Origin: Escherichia coli
GTDB lineage: Bacteria > Pseudomonadota > Gammaproteobacteria > Enterobacterales > Enterobacteriaceae
Reading direction: 5' to 3' (one strand)
Length of the DNA: 64,000 nt
Assembly: GCF_050920415.1 (NCBI RefSeq)
Contig: NZ_CP169309.1
This document shows positions 34,021 to 45,133 of the stretch, one piece after another. Below the pieces are notes generated by a model. The model did no database searches. It was not told the origin of the DNA and worked only from the letters and a program-made list of their open reading frames with translations. Every line of letters starts with the position of its first letter. The first letter of the stretch is position 1. The position numbers and the translations under genes are program-made.

Positions 34021-34914
<894 letters not shown>

Positions 34915-35294: not shown

Positions 35295-36850
35295 TTATTT
35301 AATATCTTTCACGCGCATACCGTTGATCTGTTCATCCGTGATGGTATTACCCGCTTTAAAGTAATCAACCACCGCGTGATAAACGTAATAACCGCCCGTC
35401 GTATTGCGCGCTTTACCCTCGGTAAACGCGGTAAAACCATCTCCACCATCAGCAAGGAAACTCTGAGTGGCAATGTGGTAAACCGTCGCATCTTCAATCG
35501 GTTTGCCATTCAAAGTCAGTGAGATAACCCGCTGACCAACCGGCTTGCTGCTGTCGTACTTCATTTCCAGGCCTTTCGATACCTGTAAAACGCCATTACT
35601 TAAACTTGCGCCGTGTTCCATCAAACTGCGTAATTGTTTACCCGTGAGATCCATCGTCACCAGTTCGTTGGGGAACGGGAAGGTACTGATGACGCCACCC
35701 ATCGTAATTGCACCCGCCGGGATCTCATTGCGAATCCCGCCAGAGTTGGTTAACGCCAACTGGGTATTTTTACCCGCCGCTGCCAGCAAAGCGTCCGCCG
35801 CCAGGTTCCCGAGGGAAGCCGATTCACCATAGGCACGTTTTAATTCAACCGGCGATTGCGCCACCGTTTGCTGACTTCATCCAGCTTTTTGTTCCAACTA
35901 TCAATCACCTGTTTCGTTTGCGGATCGGGCTTCCACTCATCGGCGTAAAGGGTTTTAAGCTCGAAGTTTTTCACCGTAAAAGTGTGCGGCTTCTCTTTGT
36001 AGTCGAGAACCAGTTTACCCACATCAATCCCGCCGCTGTCAGTGGAGAGGATTAACGTATTGCCGACTTTAATCGGTTCCGGCGTACCCACATGTGCATG
36101 CCCGGTGATCAAAATATCCAGCCCTTTCACCTGACTTGCCGTCTGAATATCTTTATCCAGCGCGCGACGCACATCTGTGCCTCCCATACTGGACTGGCGG
36201 GCCGGAACACCTTCGTGGATCAGGGCAACGGTCAAATCAACCTTGCCTTTGAGTTCATCGATATAACGTTGTAGCCATTTAATTTCATCACGCGCCTCAA
36301 TACCCACTCGCGTTGCCGCAGATACCGTATCATTAAAGGCAAATACACCGTGCAAACCAATCACGCCAATTTTCACGCCGTCTTTTTCAATGATGGTATA
36401 GGGCTTATCCCAGAATGATTTACTGCTGTTCTGATAAAAAACATTACCCTGCACAATCGGGAATTTTGCCTGACTCAGCTGTAATAACGTATTGTCCCAG
36501 CCGTGATCAAATTCATGATTACCTATAGTGACCGCATCGAACGGCATGGTATTCATAATATCGATAATCGCCTTGCCTTTAGTCAGGCTGCTGATATACG
36601 GCCCGGTAAAATAGTCACCCGCATCAAAAAACCAGGTCGCTTTGTTTTTAGCTTTTTCTTGTTTAACAAGCGTAGTGATATTTGCCCAGCCGCCAATATC
36701 TCGTTTACCGTCAGCAATCCACGGCACTTTATAAGGCTCTACATGTGCATGGAGGTCGTTGGTATAAATGATGGTGACATCTTTGGCGCAAGCCCAAAAC
36801 GGCAGTGTTAATGCGATACCCGCAGCAAGCATTTTAATTTTCATAAACAA
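35295..36850 (-). pseudogene. Frameshifted periplasmic 5'-nucleotidase/metallophosphatase paralog (UshA/CpdB-type two-domain enzyme)
   Basis: ORF 35840..36850 (336 aa, signal peptide MFMKIKMLAAGIALTLPFWA; metallophosphatase motifs NDLHAH, DAGDYF, GNHEFD, GHAH) is followed in another frame by ORF 35295..35864 (189 aa, nucleotidase C-terminal domain). The two parts align end-to-end with the intact downstream paralog, so a single frameshift near 35860-35875 splits one gene. Confidence 0.75.
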
Positions 36851-36903
36851 TCCCTTCCAGTGAGATAAAGGATTGCTACATTACGTTCTGAAAGGCTTTT
36901 TTA

Positions 36904-36919
36904 TGTGAGAATACTCACA
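36904..36919. promoter_or_regulatory. CRP-type palindrome (TGTGA-N6-TCACA) in the divergent promoter region
   Basis: tgtgagaatactcaca is a perfect match to both CRP half-sites with a 6 bp spacer, lying between the nucleotidase pseudogene start (36850) and the Cys-rich ORF start (36977). Confidence 0.55.
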
Positions 36920-36976
36920 TCCAGAGGCGATAACTGTAGGACAAAATCAACGACCTTATGAAATCGTTGGTGATAT

Positions 36977-38104
36977 ATGTCAAATCTGTTTGCGATTAAT
37001 GTCTGTAAAACGTTCGGTTGTCGAAATTTGGGATTGGCCTCATCGGAAGATTACAGTTGGCCAGACTATAAACTGGGTTTTCCGGCACTACACTGCCAGG
37101 CATGCGGAAGTTACCCCCCTTTGTTTGATGAACAACAATTTCGTGACTGGTTGTCAGTTCACATGACTACGTGTGCCATAGAAACAGGGCATTTTTGTCC
37201 ATCATGCTATTGTAAAGAAAAGATTTTTTATGGCCACAACCCGCAGGGAACACAACGCGTTCAATGCCGTTCATGCAAAAAAGTCTGGACTCCGAAACAG
37301 CAGCCAGCAAGAGAAATTACGTATCCCCAGTCCATTGAAACCGTTCAACTGTTCATGCCCTTTCAAGGAGCCAGCGCACTACAAAAGCTCTATGTTTTAG
37401 TCAGTCTTGACGCCACTCGTGGCAACATCCTTCATCTCTCCACGAATTATACGCAACATCAGACAGGAGACAGTCTGCGGTACAGTTACAGAGGCAATAC
37501 AGAACCAACTGAGCACCATAGCGATATTGTGCAGAGGGTAGATATGCGTGAAGCGCAATTCTTGCGCCGGAGCCAGTTCGATGAAATTCAGTATGGCAGT
37601 GCTGTGCTCAAGCGCAATGGCAAGGGAGCCATACTACGCCCGGTTATCACGGCACACGGGCATTTCAGAATACTGAAAATCCGCTTTCCACATGTCAAAA
37701 CGCATATCATTTCACACGAATGTTTTCTGAGAGGCGCAATTATTACAGCCTGGGCAGATCAGTTCCGCCAACAACAAGGCGAACTTTGGTTCGTAGAAGA
37801 AGAAATCAGCGACCGTAACGCTGATATTCCCTGGCATTTTCAGGGAACGACATACCATGGTTGGTGGCAAAATCAGTGGCAACGCTGGGGGCAGGGGAAT
37901 AACAGCAAGATGGTCTGCCTGCTCACAGGAGTCTCCTTAGAAAGGGGCGCAAATGTTTCTCTGGCAACCAGTCGTTGCTTTATCACATGGCTGACAGACC
38001 AACACGACTTTACCCAAAGCGCGTTATTATCCGCAGGTCGCGTAACGAAAATGCTGACCTCACTGGCGTTAAAATACAATGAATCGCTCAATCCATCTTG
38101 TTAG
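36977..38104 (+). CDS. Hypothetical cysteine-rich protein with an IS1 InsA-like N-terminal zinc ribbon
   Basis: 375 aa. N-terminal 100 aa carry CxxxxC, CxxC, CxxC and CxxC motifs (CKTFGC, CQAC, CPSC, CRSC); the stretch CPSC..RVQCRSCKKVW resembles the IS1 InsA zinc finger CPSC..RYLCSHCRKTW as I recall it. No recognisable DDE or HTH motif seen by eye in the remaining 270 aa. Flanked by AT-rich DNA. Confidence 0.6.
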   Translation: MSNLFAINVCKTFGCRNLGLASSEDYSWPDYKLGFPALHCQACGSYPPLFDEQQFRDWLSVHMTTCAIETGHFCPSCYCKEKIFYGHNPQGTQRVQCRSCKKVWTPKQQPAREITYPQSIETVQLFMPFQGASALQKLYVLVSLDATRGNILHLSTNYTQHQTGDSLRYSYRGNTEPTEHHSDIVQRVDMREAQFLRRSQFDEIQYGSAVLKRNGKGAILRPVITAHGHFRILKIRFPHVKTHIISHECFLRGAIITAWADQFRQQQGELWFVEEEISDRNADIPWHFQGTTYHGWWQNQWQRWGQGNNSKMVCLLTGVSLERGANVSLATSRCFITWLTDQHDFTQSALLSAGRVTKMLTSLALKYNESLNPSC

Positions 38105-38333
38105 TCAATACACTCGACAAACGACCATAAATTAATGGGATCACTATTTCTCATTTAATTAAATATATGAATGTATGACTGAAAAATATAATCACAGTCA
38201 ATGTTTAATTAATAACATTATTTGTTACTAAGATCACATAATACTTTCCTGACCTATGCTTACATAAAAATAAGACACGGAGTTCCTTTTATTTAAATAA
38301 TTCAACCAATGTAACAACCCCTATCAAGGAGGG

Positions 38334-39887
38334 ATGATGAGAACTGTATTTACGACTTTATCAGTCATATTCAGCGTGATGTTTTCTCACAGTATACTAG
38401 CTCAGGACGTTACTATTTATTATACGAATGATATTCACGCACATGTCAATCCGGCAAAAATTCCCGCTGTTGATAAGAACAGACTTGTAGGTGGTATGGC
38501 TAATATCGCAGGCATCGTTAATGAAGCGAAGAAAAAAAACAAAGATGTCTTTTTCTTTGATGCAGGCGACTATTTTACCGGTCCGTATATCAGTACCCTG
38601 ACCAAAGGTGAAGCTATTATTGATATCATGAACACCATGCCCTTTGATGCGGTGTCCGTTGGTAATCACGAGTTCGATCACGGCGTGCCCAATATGGTAT
38701 CTCAGTTATCAAAAGCAAAATTCCCCATTCTGCTGGGAAATATTTACTACACCGATACAAATAAACCAGTTTGGGATCATCCGTGGACCATTATCGAAAA
38801 AGATGGTTTAAAGATTGGTGTGATTGGATTGCATGGTGCATTCGCTTTCTATGATACAGTCGCGGCAAAAGCACGTGAAGGCGTAGAAGCCAGAGACGAA
38901 ATTAAATATTTAAATAAAGCACTTGCAGAATTAAAAGGTAAAGTCGACATTACCGTTTTGCTAATTCACGAAGGTGTTCCGGCGCGTCAATCAAGCTTTG
39001 GTAGTAAAGATGTGGAGCGGCTACTACAGGCAGATATTGAGACAGCTAAAAAAGTGAATGGTGTTGATGTCTTAATTACCGGTCACGCACATGTCGGAAC
39101 ACCGCAACCAATAAAAGTTAATAACACATTAATTGTATCTACCGATGCATACGGCACCGACATCGGAAAACTTGTGCTTGATTACAATCCGAAAACAAAG
39201 AAAATTGATAGTTATAATGGTGAGTTAATCACCATCTTTGCAGATCAATTTAAACCTGACACCATCGTTCAAAATACTATCGATAAATGGAGCGTAAAAC
39301 TTAACAAAATAACACAGGAAGTTGTCGGCCATTCTCCCGTAGTTTTAACACGTGAGTATGGCAGTTCTTCTTCTACCGGTAACCTTATTCTGGATGCAAT
39401 GATGGAAAAAACACCTGATGCCATTGCCGGATTTCAAAATAGCGGTGGGATGCGAGCTGATTTTCCTAAAGGTGATATCACACTGGGAGATGTTATTAGC
39501 ACATTCCCCTTTAATAATGACCTCATCGAGATGGATTTGACGGGCCGCGATCTCAAATCGTTGATGACGCATGCAACCAATCTAACTAACGGTGTGTTAC
39601 AGGTTTCAAAAAGCGTTGCGGTTGTCTATGACAGCAAAAAACCACTCAACCAACGGTTAATCTCTTTCACCATTAACGGCAAACCCGTGGAAGATAATCA
39701 AACATATCGTATTGCCACGCACTCCTTTTGTGCCAGTGGTGGTGACGGTTTTGAAGCATTTTTGAATGGAAAAAATGTGAAGACGATACCGGGAACAACC
39801 TCGGCGGAATCAATCATCGATTATTTCAAAAATCATAAACCTGTCACCCCAGACTTAACTAAACGAGTCATGGACGTCGCCAAATAA
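38334..39887 (+). CDS. Periplasmic 5'-nucleotidase/metallophosphatase (UshA/CpdB family), paralog B
   Basis: 517 aa; signal peptide MMRTVFTTLSVIFSVMFSHSILA; all metallophosphatase motifs present (NDIHAH, DAGDYF, GNHEFD, GHAH) plus a C-terminal nucleotidase domain. Strong RBS aggaggg; the start may be the second ATG at 38337. Confidence 0.8.
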   Translation: MMRTVFTTLSVIFSVMFSHSILAQDVTIYYTNDIHAHVNPAKIPAVDKNRLVGGMANIAGIVNEAKKKNKDVFFFDAGDYFTGPYISTLTKGEAIIDIMNTMPFDAVSVGNHEFDHGVPNMVSQLSKAKFPILLGNIYYTDTNKPVWDHPWTIIEKDGLKIGVIGLHGAFAFYDTVAAKAREGVEARDEIKYLNKALAELKGKVDITVLLIHEGVPARQSSFGSKDVERLLQADIETAKKVNGVDVLITGHAHVGTPQPIKVNNTLIVSTDAYGTDIGKLVLDYNPKTKKIDSYNGELITIFADQFKPDTIVQNTIDKWSVKLNKITQEVVGHSPVVLTREYGSSSSTGNLILDAMMEKTPDAIAGFQNSGGMRADFPKGDITLGDVISTFPFNNDLIEMDLTGRDLKSLMTHATNLTNGVLQVSKSVAVVYDSKKPLNQRLISFTINGKPVEDNQTYRIATHSFCASGGDGFEAFLNGKNVKTIPGTTSAESIIDYFKNHKPVTPDLTKRVMDVAK

Positions 39888-39921
39888 AATATCATTTATC
39901 AGTCTATATATTTAACAAGGA

Positions 39922-41547
39922 ATGCGAATGAAAACAGTGCAGCGTACTTTACTTGCCGCAACATTGCTGACTATTTTTTCGGTCTCAGTCATGGCGCAGG
40001 ATGGCACGATTATTTATACAAATGATCTTCACACTCATGTGGATTCTTATAAAGTGCCGTATATCGCAGACGGAAAACGCGACATTGGCGGCTTTGCCAA
40101 TATATCTACTTTAGTAAAACAAGAGAAAGCGAAAAATAAAGCCACCTTTTATTTTGATGCTGGAGACTATTTCACCGGCCCTTATATCAGCAGTCTGACA
40201 AAGGGCGAAGCAATAATTGACATTATGAATACCATGCCTTTTGACGCAGTATCAATCGGCAATCATGAGTTTGACCATGGCTGGGATAATGCCCTGCGAC
40301 AATTAAGCAAAGCGAATTTTCCTGTTTTATTGGGCAATGTTTATCATAAAGAGAGTGAGAAACCCTTCTGGAACAAGCCCTACACCATCCTGGAAAAAGA
40401 TGGCATCAAGATTGGTATTATTGGGCTACACGGCGTATTTGCATTTAATGATACGGTCTCGGAGCTCTCTCTCCAGGGACTCGATAATGACAATAATAAC
40501 CGCTTTGATAAATCTTCCGAGACCCTTAAGAATCAGGGGATTGAAGCACGTGATGAAGTGAAGTATTTGCAGCATTATATCGACGAGTTACGTGATAAGG
40601 TTGACCTCACTGTGGCGCTGGTTCATGAAGGCGTTCCGGCGCGTCAGTCCAGCATTGGCAATACAGATGTTAGACGCGCTCTTGATAAAGATATTCAAAC
40701 CGCTAGCAAGGTGAAAGGATTGGATATTCTGATTACCGGGCATGCCCACGTCGGAACGCCAGAACCAATCAAAGTCGGCAACACCTTAATCCTTTCGACT
40801 GATAGTGGCGGTATCGATATTGGTAAATTAGTCCTTGATGTCAACCCTACAGCTCGTACCCATAAAATGAAGAGCTTTGAGCTGAAAACAGTTTATGCCG
40901 ATGAATGGATACCCGATCCAACGACACAAAAAGTTATCAATGGCTGGAATAAAAAACTGGCGGATATTGTACGCCAACCAGTGGGTGAATCATCGATTGT
41001 ATTAACTCGCGCCTATGGTGAGTCATCGCAACTAGGCAACCTGTTTACCGATGCAATGCTTGTCGCTGCTCCGACTGCACAGATTGCATTGATAAACTCC
41101 GGCAGCTTACGTGCGGATATAAATGCAGGCACGATTACCTTTGGCGACATTACCAGTACATTCCCCTTCAAGAATGAACTTACTGAAATGGATCTCAGCG
41201 GTAAGGATCTGCGTAACCTACTGGAACACGGGGCATCGCTTACCAATGGCATCCTGCAAATGTCAAAAGGCGCAGAAATGCGCTATACCCCGCAGAAACC
41301 AGTAGGTCAGCGCATAGTATCTTTTAAAATTAATGGTGAAGAGATCGTTGATACGAATATTTACCATGTTGCAACAACGACTTTCCTTGCACTGGGGGGC
41401 GATGGTTTTCTGGCATTCAAAGAAGGGAAAAATGTTCAGGTCCGCGCCAGAAATAACATGTCCGATGTCGTGATCGATTATTTGAAGAAAGGCCACAAGA
41501 TTACGCCTGCACAGGTAAATGAAATGCGGGTGGACGTTAGCAAATAA
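39922..41547 (+). CDS. Periplasmic 5'-nucleotidase/metallophosphatase (UshA/CpdB family), paralog C
   Basis: 541 aa; signal peptide MRMKTVQRTLLAATLLTIFSVSVMA; metallophosphatase motifs intact. The N-terminal domain is about 80-85% identical to the frameshifted paralog and carries an extra N/D-rich segment of about 25 aa. Confidence 0.8.
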   Translation: MRMKTVQRTLLAATLLTIFSVSVMAQDGTIIYTNDLHTHVDSYKVPYIADGKRDIGGFANISTLVKQEKAKNKATFYFDAGDYFTGPYISSLTKGEAIIDIMNTMPFDAVSIGNHEFDHGWDNALRQLSKANFPVLLGNVYHKESEKPFWNKPYTILEKDGIKIGIIGLHGVFAFNDTVSELSLQGLDNDNNNRFDKSSETLKNQGIEARDEVKYLQHYIDELRDKVDLTVALVHEGVPARQSSIGNTDVRRALDKDIQTASKVKGLDILITGHAHVGTPEPIKVGNTLILSTDSGGIDIGKLVLDVNPTARTHKMKSFELKTVYADEWIPDPTTQKVINGWNKKLADIVRQPVGESSIVLTRAYGESSQLGNLFTDAMLVAAPTAQIALINSGSLRADINAGTITFGDITSTFPFKNELTEMDLSGKDLRNLLEHGASLTNGILQMSKGAEMRYTPQKPVGQRIVSFKINGEEIVDTNIYHVATTTFLALGGDGFLAFKEGKNVQVRARNNMSDVVIDYLKKGHKITPAQVNEMRVDVSK

Positions 41548-41558
41548 TAAAAAATTAT

Positions 41559-41594
41559 AATGCCATTCATTCACTGAATGGCATTATTTTTCTC
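41559..41594 (+). terminator. Intrinsic terminator after nucleotidase paralog C
   Basis: aatgccattca ttcac tgaatggcatt followed by a T-rich run. Confidence 0.6.
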
Positions 41595-41624: not shown

Positions 41625-42485
41625 ATGTGTATAAAAAAGCACGGGATAGCTTTATCGATTCTATTAATACCTTGCATTGGAAACGCTCAGGAAATTAAAA
41701 GTGAGGAAGGCTGGTTACATCAAAGCTTGAATGTCATTGGTCGCACAGACTCTCGCTTTGGCCCAAGGCTGACTAACGACCTCTACCCTGAATATACTGT
41801 AGCAGGAAGAAAAGACTGGTTTGATTTTTATGGTTATGTTGATCTACCAAAATTCTTTGGCGTCGGCAGTCACTATGATGTTGGGATCTGGGATGAGGGC
41901 TCACCACTATTTACGGAAATAGAACCTCGGTTTTCCATTGACAAATTGACCGGATTAAATCTTGCGTTCGGCCCTTTTAAAGAATGGTTCATTGCAAACA
42001 ACTATGTCTATGATATGGGTGACAACCAGTCATCCCGGCAAAGTACATGGTATATGGGGCTTGGTACAGATATCGACACGGGTCTACCAATTAAGCTTTC
42101 TGCCAATATATACACCAAGTATCAGTGGCAAAACTATGGTGCCGCTAATGAAAATGAATGGGACGGATATCGATTCAAAATAAAATATAGCATTCCTCTT
42201 ACCCATTTATTCGGAGGGCGATTGGTATACAATAGTTTTACTAACTTTGATTTTGGCTCCGATCTTGCGGACAAATCACACAATAATAAACGAACCAGTA
42301 ATGCTATTGCTTCAAGCCATATCCTTTCCCTGCTATATGAACACTGGAAATTTGCATTTACACTACGTTATTTTCACAACGGTGGACAATGGAATGCTGG
42401 GGAGAAAGTTAACTTCGGAGATGGTCCATTTGAATTAAAAAACACAGGATGGGGAACCTATACTACTATTGGTTATCAATTTTAA
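41625..42485 (+). CDS. Tsx-family nucleoside-specific outer membrane channel paralog
   Basis: 286 aa; aligns along its whole length with E. coli Tsx as I recall it (e.g. [63 protein letters not shown]). Signal peptide present. Confidence 0.8.
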
Positions 42486-42700: not shown

Positions 42701-45133
42701 CTACAACAACTGCGCCAGACGGTTAATATCCGACTGAATCGCCCCGGCGGTGACGTCGCGCCCTGCACCTGGCCCGCGGATCACCAGCGGGTTGTCGCGA
42801 TACCAGCGGCTTTCGATGGCAAAGACGTTATCGCACGGTAGTAGTGATGCCAGCGGATGGTCTTCTCGCACCGCTTCCACGCCTACTCGCGCTTTGCCGT
42901 TGGCATCGAAACGCGCCACGTAGCGCAACACCAGCCCCATTTCACGGGCCGCTTCCAACCGTTGTACCATCTGCTCATTAAGTTCATCGCCATTTTCAAA
43001 GAAATGGTCGATGCTTCCACCTTCGCAATGGGTTGGCACCAGTGATTCAACACGCACCTGGTCCGGTTCAATGTTGTAACCCGCTTCACGCGCCAGAATC
43101 ACCAGCTTGCGCATCACGTCTTTGCCGGAGAGGTCATCACGCGGGTCAGGTTCAGTTAAGCCCTGCTGCCACGCCTGATCCACCAGCTCGGTAAACGGCA
43201 CGCTACCGTCGAATTGCAGGAACAGCCAGGAGAGTGTGCCGGAGAAGATCCCGCTGATCGACAAAATAGTGTCGCCGCTGTCGATCAGATCGCGCACGGT
43301 ATGGTTGATCGGCAAACCTGCGCCGACGGTGGCGTTGTATAGCCAGTGACGCCCGGTTTTTTCGAACGCGTCGTGGATCTGGCGATATTTATTGCTGTCG
43401 CTCGCTCCCGCCAGTTTGTTGGCACTGATGACGTGGAAACCGTGGCTGGCGAAATCGAGGTATTGATCGGCCAGTTGCTGACTGGCGGTAACGTCCAGCA
43501 CCACTAAATCATCATACGGATGGGCACGCATCCACAGGAACAGCGACTCTTCATCCTGTTCGACGGCTTCATCATTAAAGAAGGCTAGCGCACGGCTGGC
43601 GTCCAGCCCGTCATAGCTCAACAGGCTGCGACGGCTGTCCACCACGCCTGCCAGCACAAATTCAAAGCCGGTGCGCGCCGAGAGCGTGCTCTGCTCACGG
43701 GCGAACAGTTCCAGCCAGCGGGAACCGATATTGCCCTTACCGAACAATACCAGGCCGATGCGTTTTTCTGCGCGGAAGACGGACTGATGCAGCCCCTGAA
43801 TCAGGCTTTCGGTCGGCCCGGTGCGCAGTACTGCCACCAGGCTGATGCCGTCATCGGACTGCCAGGTAAACTCGACCGGCTGGCCTTTCAGTTGCTGCCA
43901 GAAGCGGTGGCAATGCAGCGGGTTACGGGTGACGCCCGCCCCAACCATCGCCACCAGCGCCAGCCCCTGACGCAGGCGCAGTTCGCCAGGTAATCCTGCT
44001 TCGTCGAGGATTTTCAGCGCACTGTCGGCCACTTCCGAGGTGTAGCAAAATTGCAGCAACTGGCGATCGTTATGCACGCCAACCGCCAGTGGGCGCACCT
44101 GAGCACGTTTCAGGATTTGGTCGATCTCTTTATGCGCCAGTTTGAAATCCTGACTGGCGGGCACCTGAAACTCAATCAAACAGACATCATCGTGGCTGGT
44201 GACAATACGCGCGCCCGTACCGGAAGCCAGCACGCGTTCAATGCGCGTGGAACCTTGATCCGGTGTATAGCTACAGCGCAGCTGCAGGTCGATTTCACTG
44301 CCAGAAACTGGCTGTAAAGTACGCGCGTGCAACACTGGCGCGGCAAGACGCGCCAGTTCGCTGGCTTCATCAAGACGCAGCAATGGCAGCAGACAGGCAT
44401 CTTTCACTTTACGCGGGTCGGCGCTATATACCCCGGCGACGTCACTCCAGATGGTTACGCGGGAAACTCCCGCCAGCGCACCGATTTGTGTCGCGGAATA
44501 GTCGGAACCGTTACGCCCCAGCAGCACCGTTTCACCGGCGTTGTTACGGCTGATAAACCCGGTCACCACCAGACGTTTGCCCGGATGTTGTACCAGTAGC
44601 TGTTGCAGCAACGGGTAAGAAAGCCCTTCATCAACCTGCGGCTGCGCGGCGCGTTCAGCGCGTAAAAACTCGCGGGCATCAAGCCAGGCCGCTGGCAATC
44701 CTTGTTGATTAAGTACCGCAGACATCAGGCGCGCCGACCACACTTCACCGTGGCCCACCACTTCCGCATACACCGCATCGTTAATACCGCTGTCGAGCAG
44801 CGCCGCCAGGCGTTCCAGATCGCTGACAAAAGCGCTAATGAGGCTATCGGCTTCTTCAGCGGGTAGCAGGCCGCTAATCAGATCGCACTGATAACGACGT
44901 AGCGTTTGTTGAACCTGATGCGCAGAGAGACGATCGGTCTGGCTTAGTTTCAACCAGTTAATCAACTGGTTAGTGGTGCTACCGGCGGCGGAAACCACCA
45001 TCATATCGTCAGGCTGAGAGTACTCCGCCATAATGCCCGCGACACGCAAATAACACTTCACATCAGCCAGACTACTGCCACCAAATTTATGCAGTTGACG
45101 ACCTTTCGCCCCTGCCTGCGCAATCACACTCAT
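42701..45133 (-). CDS. metL: Bifunctional aspartokinase II / homoserine dehydrogenase II
   Basis: 810 aa, MSVIAQAGAKGRQLHKFGGSSLADVKCYLRVAGIMAEY... Confidence 0.96.
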   Translation of the reverse strand: MSVIAQAGAKGRQLHKFGGSSLADVKCYLRVAGIMAEYSQPDDMMVVSAAGSTTNQLINWLKLSQTDRLSAHQVQQTLRRYQCDLISGLLPAEEADSLISAFVSDLERLAALLDSGINDAVYAEVVGHGEVWSARLMSAVLNQQGLPAAWLDAREFLRAERAAQPQVDEGLSYPLLQQLLVQHPGKRLVVTGFISRNNAGETVLLGRNGSDYSATQIGALAGVSRVTIWSDVAGVYSADPRKVKDACLLPLLRLDEASELARLAAPVLHARTLQPVSGSEIDLQLRCSYTPDQGSTRIERVLASGTGARIVTSHDDVCLIEFQVPASQDFKLAHKEIDQILKRAQVRPLAVGVHNDRQLLQFCYTSEVADSALKILDEAGLPGELRLRQGLALVAMVGAGVTRNPLHCHRFWQQLKGQPVEFTWQSDDGISLVAVLRTGPTESLIQGLHQSVFRAEKRIGLVLFGKGNIGSRWLELFAREQSTLSARTGFEFVLAGVVDSRRSLLSYDGLDASRALAFFNDEAVEQDEESLFLWMRAHPYDDLVVLDVTASQQLADQYLDFASHGFHVISANKLAGASDSNKYRQIHDAFEKTGRHWLYNATVGAGLPINHTVRDLIDSGDTILSISGIFSGTLSWLFLQFDGSVPFTELVDQAWQQGLTEPDPRDDLSGKDVMRKLVILAREAGYNIEPDQVRVESLVPTHCEGGSIDHFFENGDELNEQMVQRLEAAREMGLVLRYVARFDANGKARVGVEAVREDHPLASLLPCDNVFAIESRWYRDNPLVIRGPGAGRDVTAGAIQSDINRLAQLL

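Follow-up and report, generated by a model that had tools for sequence, protein, structure and literature searches.

Three paralogous genes of the 5'-nucleotidase family, termed A, B, and C below, lie close together in a 64-kb stretch of the Escherichia coli contig NZ_CP169309.1 (the window), and their products appear to combine conserved catalytic N-domains with more divergent C-domains. The question raised by this locus is whether such a pattern reflects a diversification of substrate specificity, as had been proposed in a preliminary description of this DNA. The window sequence matches E. coli MFDS1022581 with 100% identity. The genes belong to an islet that is inserted between metF and metL and has a low GC content (40-48% vs 52-58% in the flanks). 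The following features were located:

35295..36850, minus strand: paralog A, 5'-nucleotidase-family pseudogene, 'frameshifted' in RefSeq (N-domain ~35933-36781, linker 35856-35932, C-domain 35298-35855)
36904..36919, unstranded: palindrome TGTGAGAATACTCACA, a perfect match to the CRP consensus, in the region of the divergent promoters of A and the Cys-rich gene
36977..38104, plus strand: Cys-rich hypothetical protein of 375 aa, companion in the module
38223..38238, unstranded: CRP-like site TGTTACTAAGATCACA with one mismatch, ~100 bp upstream of B
38334..39887, plus strand: paralog B, intact, with signal peptide, Pfam Metallophos and 5_nucleotid_C, RefSeq start 38337 (N-domain 38406-39251, linker 39252-39332, C-domain 39333-39884)
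39922..41547, plus strand: paralog C, intact, with signal peptide, assigned by Pfam, RefSeq start 39928 (N-domain 40000-40908, linker 40909-40989, C-domain 40990-41544)
40471..40530, plus strand: insertion of 20 aa LQGLDNDNNNRFDKSSETLK that the alignment shows in the N-domain of C but not in A or B
41557..41587, plus strand: terminator-like hairpin between C and the tsx-like gene, a 13-bp stem followed by a T-run, found by pattern match
41625..42485, plus strand: Tsx-like nucleoside-specific outer-membrane channel (NCBIfam NF011686)

All three paralogs had initially been placed at 38334-41547. Three do exist, but this interval holds B and C only, and A lies outside it at 35295-36850. Paralog A is inactivated in this strain by a recent 4-bp deletion (GGTG, between 35874 and 35873), which shifts the reading frame within the interdomain linker and leaves the C-domain (5_nucleotid_C) of the window copy out of frame. 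This strain thus retains two full-length copies, B and C. The frameshift is confined to it, and the gene is intact in strains N96, IAI39, CFT073, and 201609.

Among 5,426 complete E. coli genomes, B and C, and with them the islet, are present in 658 and A in 1,843. Enterobacter chuandaensis harbors orthologues of the Cys-rich hypothetical gene, A, B, tsx, and C in one cluster, and in Salmonella one nucleotidase gene adjoins a tsx gene. The anatomy of the locus and the conservation of the module are direct observations, as are the residue conservation and the rate asymmetries described below. The Tsx-like protein scores 489.9 bits against NF011686 (cutoff 311) over residues 2-286 of 286 and is thus a member of this family; RefSeq marks its gene as partial, but the gene has its full length and shares 98% identity with that of CFT073. 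The Cys-rich protein is 66% identical to its Enterobacter orthologue, whose gene is likewise transcribed in divergent orientation to A. Residues 74-115 have a weak, sub-threshold similarity to the InsA/IS1 zinc ribbon, and a PDB search retrieved no relative of this protein.

Judged from sequence motifs, the module is probably under CRP control. The palindrome at 36904..36919 is the sole zero-mismatch CRP site in the window, and its half-sites are kept at the same position in CFT073 and, with one mismatch, in E. chuandaensis. The site upstream of B is identical in CFT073 and is not above chance on its own. Overall, CRP-like sites in the window occur at chance frequency (27 observed vs 26 expected). 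Among these matches, only the perfect, positionally conserved one is noteworthy.

In the 5'-nucleotidase/UshA family, the nucleoside pocket is held by the C-domain and the dimetal site by the N-domain (PMC7922932), which agrees with what had been assumed for the paralogs. The roles of the individual residues are described for UshA-type enzymes (PMC7922932), and alignment with a UshA reference sequence 100% identical to PDB 1USH allowed them to be followed through the paralogs. The metallophosphatase motifs reported earlier (DxH, GD, GNHE, the Ile/Val-His-Glu histidine, and GHAH) are indeed intact in A, B, and C and correspond to D41, H43, D84, N116, H117, D120, H217, and H252 of UshA; the position of UshA Q254 is occupied by histidine in all three. 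The set of dimetal ligands (equivalents of D41, H43, D84, N116, H217, and H252) is complete. The catalytic His-Asp dyad (UshA His117/Asp120) is present within a GNHEFD motif that is invariant in A, B, C, and their homologues. Substrate contacts known from the family, namely the two stacking phenylalanines and the Arg, Asn, and Asp residues, are likewise invariant in the three paralogs. Metal ligands, dyad, phenylalanine clamp, and Arg/Asn/Asp contacts are also invariant in 11 diverse homologues, with a glycine at D504 as the one exception. A few lineage-fixed substitutions lie beside contact residues, as in F-[P/N/K]-N. In the lineage of C, changes near contact residues are few as well (four of the eight described below).

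Profile searches place the N-domains in PF00149 (Metallophos; B, E = 3e-12; C, E = 1e-10) and the C-domains, with their aromatic clamp, in PF02872 (5_nucleotid_C; B, E = 3.5e-36; C, E = 1.7e-36). Orthology with UshA is ruled out by scores of 151-166 bits (B 165.6, C 151.3, A orthologue 153.8) against a cutoff of 600 bits for the equivalog NF007109. The CpdB models NF006938 and TIGR01390 (cutoffs 486 and 883 bits) are matched with only 78-102 bits and in the N-domain only, and the NadN NAD nucleotidase model TIGR01530 (cutoff 436 bits) with 121-132 bits. In contrast, C matches PDB 3IVD with E = 1.4e-226, and its AlphaFold2 model (mean pLDDT 85.6, linker helix at residues 331-348) superimposes on this structure in Foldseek with TM-scores of 0.89/0.96 (query/target length). 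The region of the insertion (residues 180-202) has a pLDDT <50 in this model, and the 20 additional residues fit the length of 536-539 aa of C-clade members. A, B, and C are assigned to the c4898/PDB 3IVD subfamily of Enterobacterales, a distinct group of secreted two-domain metallophosphatases of the 5'-nucleotidase type, in which they represent three clades. They would presumably act as phosphohydrolases on nucleotides in the periplasm, and the uridine and cytidine bound in crystals of the A orthologue point indirectly to such an activity. Because no published enzymology for this subfamily was found in the literature, we infer the substrates of A, B, and C.

The claim that the C-domains diverge more strongly than the N-domains holds in all three pairs when identities are determined per domain. 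For A and C, amino acid identity is 80.9% in the N-domain, 52% in the linker, and 55.7% in the C-domain, the last value matching the earlier estimate of roughly 55%. For A and B, it is 66.3% in the N-domain and about 50-51% (50.0%) in the C-domain, and for B and C 64.2% and about 48-49% (47.8%), respectively. Accordingly, the N-domains can be called highly similar, as they had been, for A and C but not for B, which even in this domain shares no more than 64-66% identity with A and C. Divergence among the paralogs is strongest in the linker, with 37-52% identity. The asymmetry between the domains is not due to chance since Fisher tests give p = 7e-9 (A-C), 5e-4 (A-B), and 5.5e-4 (B-C).

Each paralog forms a clade of its own among Enterobacterales homologues, and by these comparisons A, B, and C are anciently diverged paralogs. 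Synonymous sites between them are saturated in both domains (pS 0.7-1.0) and in every 50-codon window (pS 0.7-1.1), so that dN/dS is uninformative for the paralog pairs. Omega between the window genes and their CFT073 orthologues is 0.02-0.09 in both domains; paralog B is 98.6% identical to its orthologue, with an omega of 0.03-0.09. E. coli and Enterobacter have both kept all three lineages side by side, and purifying selection on them is strong.

The same saturation bears on an explanation by gene conversion or domain shuffling, according to which the N-domains resemble each other through homogenisation or exchange and not through selection. Such an origin might be suspected because the N-domains of A and C are 88-95% identical in some 40-residue windows and because megablast with A as the query hits a second place in genomes carrying B and C. 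However, even the most conserved 50-codon windows are saturated, and conversion of the N-domain was rejected in view of the lack of low-pS tracts and of equal N-domain distances of A, C, and an intermediate clade to outgroups. These equal distances indicate that it was acceleration of the C-domain, and not homogenisation of the N-domain, that produced the asymmetry. Domain swapping was rejected because both domains yield the same clade relationships. Conversion or shuffling is thus considered highly improbable.

An asymmetry that is real does not have to be specific to the paralogs. Rates were compared by Kimura-corrected p-distances, NJ topology, and column bootstraps, in which the members of a clade are not independent. 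Among 120 homologues, the C-domain evolves ~1.2-2x faster than the N-domain even between orthologues, so that stronger conservation of the N-domain is not diagnostic of a change in specificity. The dC/dN ratio between E. coli and Enterobacter is 1.85 for A, 1.54 for B, and 1.02 for C; within-clade means are 1.2-2.0, and the whole tree gives 1.69. A-B and B-C, both with a ratio of 1.71, cannot be told apart from this baseline, with the proviso that saturation compresses rate ratios for these deep pairs. Sites that also vary within clades make up 57% of the C-domain vs 41% of the N-domain (p = 9e-4) and account for most of the extra C-domain divergence, and clade-fixed differences are not enriched in the C-domain (15% vs 11%, p = 0.20).

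These results are what relaxed constraint or neutral drift would produce, with the same broad specificity in all three enzymes and their retention for dosage or differential regulation. This reading agrees with the orthologue (1.5-2.0) and whole-tree baselines, with the location of the excess divergence at within-clade-variable sites, and with the invariance of all direct contact residues. It also fits the broad specificity of UshA-type enzymes, which results from the base being held by stacking (PMC7922932). However, it does not accommodate the pair A-C, whose net C/N ratio of 3.0 (bootstrap 95% CI 2.1-4.6, P < 0.005) is the only one above baseline. Nor does it readily explain why the C-domain of the C lineage accelerated and then came under tight constraint (within-clade ratio 1.2; E. 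coli vs Enterobacter 1.02), or why three lineages were co-retained in two genera with omega < 0.1. Drift of this kind is accordingly regarded as possible but rather unlikely.

Relative-rate tests trace the A-C excess to an acceleration in the lineage of paralog C that is restricted to the C-domain, with a delta d of 0.16-0.18 (CI excluding zero) for this domain and about zero for the N-domain. NNLS stem-branch C/N ratios of 5-15 were judged unstable, the N-domain branches being very short, and NNLS branch lengths were replaced by net-divergence bootstraps and the relative-rate tests. Changes of the C lineage at otherwise conserved sites affect 8 of 98 such positions in the C-domain vs 4 of 196 in the N-domain (p = 0.024). 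Half of the eight C-domain changes (T367I, G371S, I387T, and P393K in paralog A numbering) fall within the N368-R373-F392-N394 contact stretch. This clustering, like the lack of evidence for partners, speaks against the idea that something other than base recognition drove the divergence of the C-domains, such as the dynamics of the hinge, oligomerisation, or contacts with the Tsx-like pore, the cell envelope, or another partner. That idea would be in line with the strong divergence of the linker (37-52% identity), with many lineage-fixed differences far in sequence from contact residues, and with the disordered 20-aa loop gained in the N-domain of C; it is nevertheless judged improbable.

The explanation preferred here, which we hold to be slightly on the probable side as a whole, combines a horizontally acquired, low-GC, nucleotide-scavenging islet at metF/metL with ancient paralogs, a baseline asymmetry between the domains, and a modest retuning in the C lineage. 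The nucleoside moiety of a nucleotide would be held between the two invariant phenylalanines of the C-domain, and rotation of this domain on the linker helix would bring the phosphate to the dimetal centre and the His-Asp dyad of the N-domain. Uptake of the liberated nucleosides would follow. A generally weaker constraint on the C-domain in this family would account for the asymmetry of A-B and B-C and for most of that of A-C. In addition, a burst of change specific to the C-domain, followed by renewed constraint, would have occurred in the C lineage and to a lesser degree in the A lineage. This is what a modest retuning of nucleotide preference, and not of chemistry, would look like. The proposed diversification of specificity is thus upheld in part: the A-C excess, the C-lineage acceleration, the fixed changes flanking the contacts, and the co-retention argue for it, while the baseline ratios of A-B and B-C, the invariant contacts, and the location of the excess mainly at within-clade-variable sites argue against it.

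A stronger version of this view, which we regard as possible but rather unlikely, would see in the three enzymes a substrate-partitioned trio. The A lineage would bind pyrimidine nucleosides (PDB 3IVD/3IVE), C would have gained a new preference through T367I, G371S, I387T, and P393K around the nucleoside/phosphate pocket and through its new surface loop, and B would serve a third class. Purine nucleotides, NAD, UDP-sugars, and cyclic dinucleotides are among the candidate classes. In extraintestinal pathogenic E. coli (ExPEC), such enzymes might generate extracellular adenosine or degrade nucleotides sensed by the host.

The domain asymmetry is therefore real but fairly ordinary, being largely a general property of the 5'-nucleotidase family, and in this family a conserved N-domain combined with a divergent C-domain cannot by itself be taken to mean that specificity has diversified. 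If the paralogs differ in preference, they would provide a compact natural example of retuning in the mobile C-domain of 5'-nucleotidases, with a possible bearing on nutrient scavenging or the degradation of nucleotide signals in ExPEC, APEC, and B2/F lineages.

Parts of this picture were known before: the locus is annotated, the structure of one member has been solved, and published work covers the region. The stretch from metL to metF has been reported as GR31 in the ExPEC/APEC strain BEN2908, for which nucleotide processing and Tsx-dependent nucleoside uptake were proposed (PMC12928451). GR31 likewise comprises three ORFs with UshA domains (1554, 1551, and 1620 bp) and an 861-bp tsx-like ORF; the passages of that paper considered here do not deal with divergence by domain, the pseudogenization of A, the CRP site, or the module in Enterobacter (PMC12928451). 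A literature search with the PDB codes 3IVD/3IVE or the locus tags c4894-c4899 yielded no relevant paper.

The closest characterized structure is the 'putative 5'-nucleotidase' c4898 of CFT073, solved with uridine (3IVD) and cytidine (3IVE), which is the orthologue of A (98% identity). Its subfamily also takes in B and C, with 59% and 70% identity to A, respectively. Compared with c4898, A of the window is frameshifted, and C has an additional loop of 20 aa and shows acceleration of its C-domain. E. coli UshA (PDB 1USH) is built from the same two domains as the paralogs and shares with them the full complement of metal ligands, the dyad of His117 and Asp120, the clamp formed by Phe429 and Phe498, and the residues Arg410, Asn431, and Asp504. 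It differs in its low overall identity (~20%), in Gln254, which is replaced by His in the paralogs, and in the segment of Arg375/Arg379, which is shorter in them. The NCBIfam models that match best are those of the type of Bacillus subtilis YfkN, through their 5'-nucleotidase half, and the next-closest solved structure is the 5'-nucleotidase of Thermus thermophilus (PDB 2Z1A). Identity to both is ~25-28%, and YfkN is a multi-module fusion, whereas A, B, and C are single modules.

The three 5'-nucleotidase-family paralogs A, B and C, of which A is a pseudogene, lie in an islet of about 7.4 kb and five genes between the core genes metF and metL. The GC content of the islet is 40-48% versus 52-58% in the flanks.

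34021-34911, minus strand: metF, core flank of the islet
35295-36850, minus strand: paralog A, 5'-nucleotidase family, annotated 'frameshifted'
36977-38104, plus strand: Cys-rich hypothetical protein (hyp), 375 aa
38334-39887, plus strand: paralog B, 517 aa
39922-41547, plus strand: paralog C, 541 aa
41625-42485, plus strand: Tsx-like channel gene (tsx)
42701-45133, minus strand: metL, core flank of the islet

This locus is already known and annotated. The BEN2908 genome paper names the same islet (metL..metF) GR31 and proposes that it couples the processing of nucleotides to uptake through Tsx (PMC12928451). E. coli MFDS1022581 is 100% identical to the window, which is chromosomal there. Of 5,426 complete E. 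coli genomes, 1,843 have A and 658 have B together with C, the latter group including CFT073, UTI89, O127:H6, ATCC 25922, IAI39 and APEC strains; in about 1,185 genomes, A and hyp are present but B, C and tsx are missing. Compared with CFT073, A (93.4% nucleotide identity, dS about 0.3) and hyp (91.5%) are more diverged than B, C and tsx (95.7-97.7%) and the flanking metF and metL (about 96%). Thus, the two halves of the islet (35295-38104 and the rest) may differ in history. Enterobacter chuandaensis carries the complete module as a single cluster elsewhere in its chromosome, with identity to the E. coli gene of 66% for hyp, 91% for A, 74% for B, 59% for tsx and 84% for C, and in Salmonella a single B-like nucleotidase adjoins a tsx-like gene.

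The preliminary description, placed at 38334-41547 and thereby taking in B and C only, reported intact metallophosphatase motifs in all three paralogs and C-terminal domains diverging far more than the N-terminal ones, with about 55% identity between A and C. Both observations were confirmed. The motifs DxH, GD, GNHE(FD), the His of I/V-H-E, and GHAH are found in A, B and C, and their residues correspond to D41, H43, D84, N116, H117, D120, H217 and H252 of UshA (reference sequence 100% identical to PDB 1USH), with Q254 replaced by His. Domain limits were set by alignment (A residues: metallophosphatase N-domain 22-304, linker 305-331, nucleoside-binding C-domain 332-517), consistent with a linker helix at residues 331-348 in the AlphaFold2 model of C. 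Per-domain pairwise identities differ significantly in every pair, and the linker is the most divergent segment (37-52% identity).

Identity between paralogs by domain, with Fisher p for N-domain versus C-domain
A-C: N-domain 80.9%, C-domain 55.7%, p = 7e-9
A-B: N-domain 66.3%, C-domain 50.0%, p = 5e-4
B-C: N-domain 64.2%, C-domain 47.8%, p = 5.5e-4

At synonymous sites, all three pairs are saturated throughout both domains, in each window of 50 codons (pS 0.7-1.1). Therefore, A, B and C are ancient paralogs and not duplications within E. coli, and dN/dS between them is not computable. The conserved N-domain shows no trace of gene conversion, pS being saturated in every window. Comparison of the window with its CFT073 orthologues gives an omega of 0.02-0.09 for either domain; the nucleotidase genes are under strong purifying selection, except for the broken copy of A in the source strain.

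The asymmetry had been read as diversification of substrate specificity, a reading that has to be weighed against the normal domain rates of the family. A search with B yielded 120 homologues, every named one from Enterobacterales. In a neighbour-joining tree A, B and C each fall into separate clades, and the C clade (536-539 aa, with an insertion) is nested among shorter intermediate sequences. Over the whole tree, C-domain change is 1.69 times N-domain change. The ratios of C-domain to N-domain distance (dC/dN) are based on Kimura-corrected p-distances and this topology. The bootstraps resample only the columns of the alignment, sequences within a clade are non-independent, and saturation compresses deep comparisons.

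dC/dN within clades, between E. coli and Enterobacter orthologues, and between paralogs
Within clades: A 2.0; B 1.55; C 1.2; intermediates 1.5
Orthologues: A 1.85; B 1.54; C 1.02
Paralogs: A-B 1.71; B-C 1.71; A-C 2.95

The A-B and B-C ratios lie within the orthologue range and are thus indistinguishable from this baseline, so that the family norm fully accounts for pairs involving B. Only A-C exceeds it, with a net ratio of 3.0 after subtraction of within-clade diversity (bootstrap 95% CI 2.1-4.6), above the within-clade ratios in 200 of 200 replicates. A domain swap as the source of this excess is ruled out because both domains give identical clade relationships. In relative-rate tests against outgroups, A, C and the intermediates are equal in the N-domain (differences -0.01 to 0.03, all CIs including zero); in the C-domain, the distance to the outgroups is greater for the C clade than for A or the intermediates, by 0.16-0.18 (CIs excluding zero). 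Parsimony at sites conserved within clades assigns to the C lineage changes at 4/196 N-domain versus 8/98 C-domain sites (p = 0.024), and to the A lineage 10/196 versus 12/98 (p = 0.035). After this burst, both domains of the C clade are equally constrained (ratios 1.0-1.2). Sites variable within clades are enriched in the C-domain (57% versus 41%, p = 9e-4), whereas clade-fixed differences are not (15% versus 11%, p = 0.20), indicating that the asymmetry mostly reflects general C-domain laxity.

In an alignment to UshA, A, B and C invariantly retain the Arg that binds phosphate (equivalent to R410), both stacking Phe (F429 and F498), Asn431, Asp504 and the Arg of an L-K/T-R-x-Y-G segment; what Phe429, Phe498 and His117 do, and how the two domains share their tasks, has been described (PMC7922932). 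Lineage-fixed differences flank these contacts. The single residue that separates the clamp Phe from the Asn differs by lineage: A and the intermediates have Pro, B has Asn and C has Lys. In C, the loop surrounding R373 also has T367I, G371S, P377N and I387T; B carries L465C adjoining the second Phe, as well as H458R (A numbering). The proposed substrate diversification is thus only partly upheld: the greater N-domain conservation as such is the family norm, and what speaks for it is the A-C excess with a genuine but modest C-domain-specific acceleration in the C lineage, involving a few changes beside invariant contact residues, and more weakly in the A lineage. That two genera have kept all three lineages also speaks against redundancy among A, B and C.

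In A, alignment with intact alleles shows 4 bp (GGTG) missing between 35874 and 35873, exactly within the interdomain linker. Since A is intact in N96 (a 99.4%-identical strain), IAI39, CFT073 and 201609, the inactivation is recent and strain-specific in the sample examined. The residual ORF (35840-36850, 336 aa) encodes a signal peptide and the complete catalytic domain. By analogy with CpdB, whose isolated N-domain is still active to some extent as a phosphodiesterase (PMC7922932), this truncated product might not be wholly inert.

The 126-bp divergent A/hyp promoter region contains the only zero-mismatch CRP-consensus site of the 64-kb window, the palindrome TGTGAGAATACTCACA (36904-36919), whose half-sites are kept in CFT073 and Enterobacter with a variable spacer. 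A CRP-like site with one mismatch (38223-38238) precedes B by about 100 bp. These putative sites suggest catabolite control as for other nucleoside-scavenging genes. B and C, spaced by 35-40 bp, may be transcribed together and independently of tsx; a hairpin with a 13-bp stem and T-runs on both strands (41557-41587) lies between C and tsx. The latter is a full-length 286-aa ORF with the C-terminal Phe typical of outer-membrane proteins, 98% identical to the CFT073 copy annotated as intact, and its RefSeq label 'partial, missing C-terminus' in the source strain, N96 and IAI39 is probably an annotation artefact. Hyp, conserved alongside the nucleotidase module, contains several CxxC pairs and, at residues 74-115, a sub-threshold similarity to the InsA/IS1 zinc ribbon; no PDB relative was found. 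It might be a regulator. Its Enterobacter orthologue (66% identity) is also divergently oriented from A.

B and C contain the Pfam domains Metallophos and 5_nucleotid_C. All three paralogs score below the NCBIfam cutoffs for UshA, NadN and CpdB and are not orthologues of characterised E. coli enzymes. A 20-aa low-complexity insertion in the N-domain of C, LQGLDNDNNNRFDKSSETLK (40471-40530), has a pLDDT below 50, which predicts disorder; its presence agrees with the length of the C clade, the nearest shorter relatives (516-520 aa) having about 20 aa less. The model of C (mean pLDDT 85.6) superimposes with TM-scores of 0.89/0.96 on 3IVD/3IVE, the structural-genomics entry 'putative 5'-nucleotidase (c4898)', which is the orthologue of A and was solved with uridine and with cytidine.
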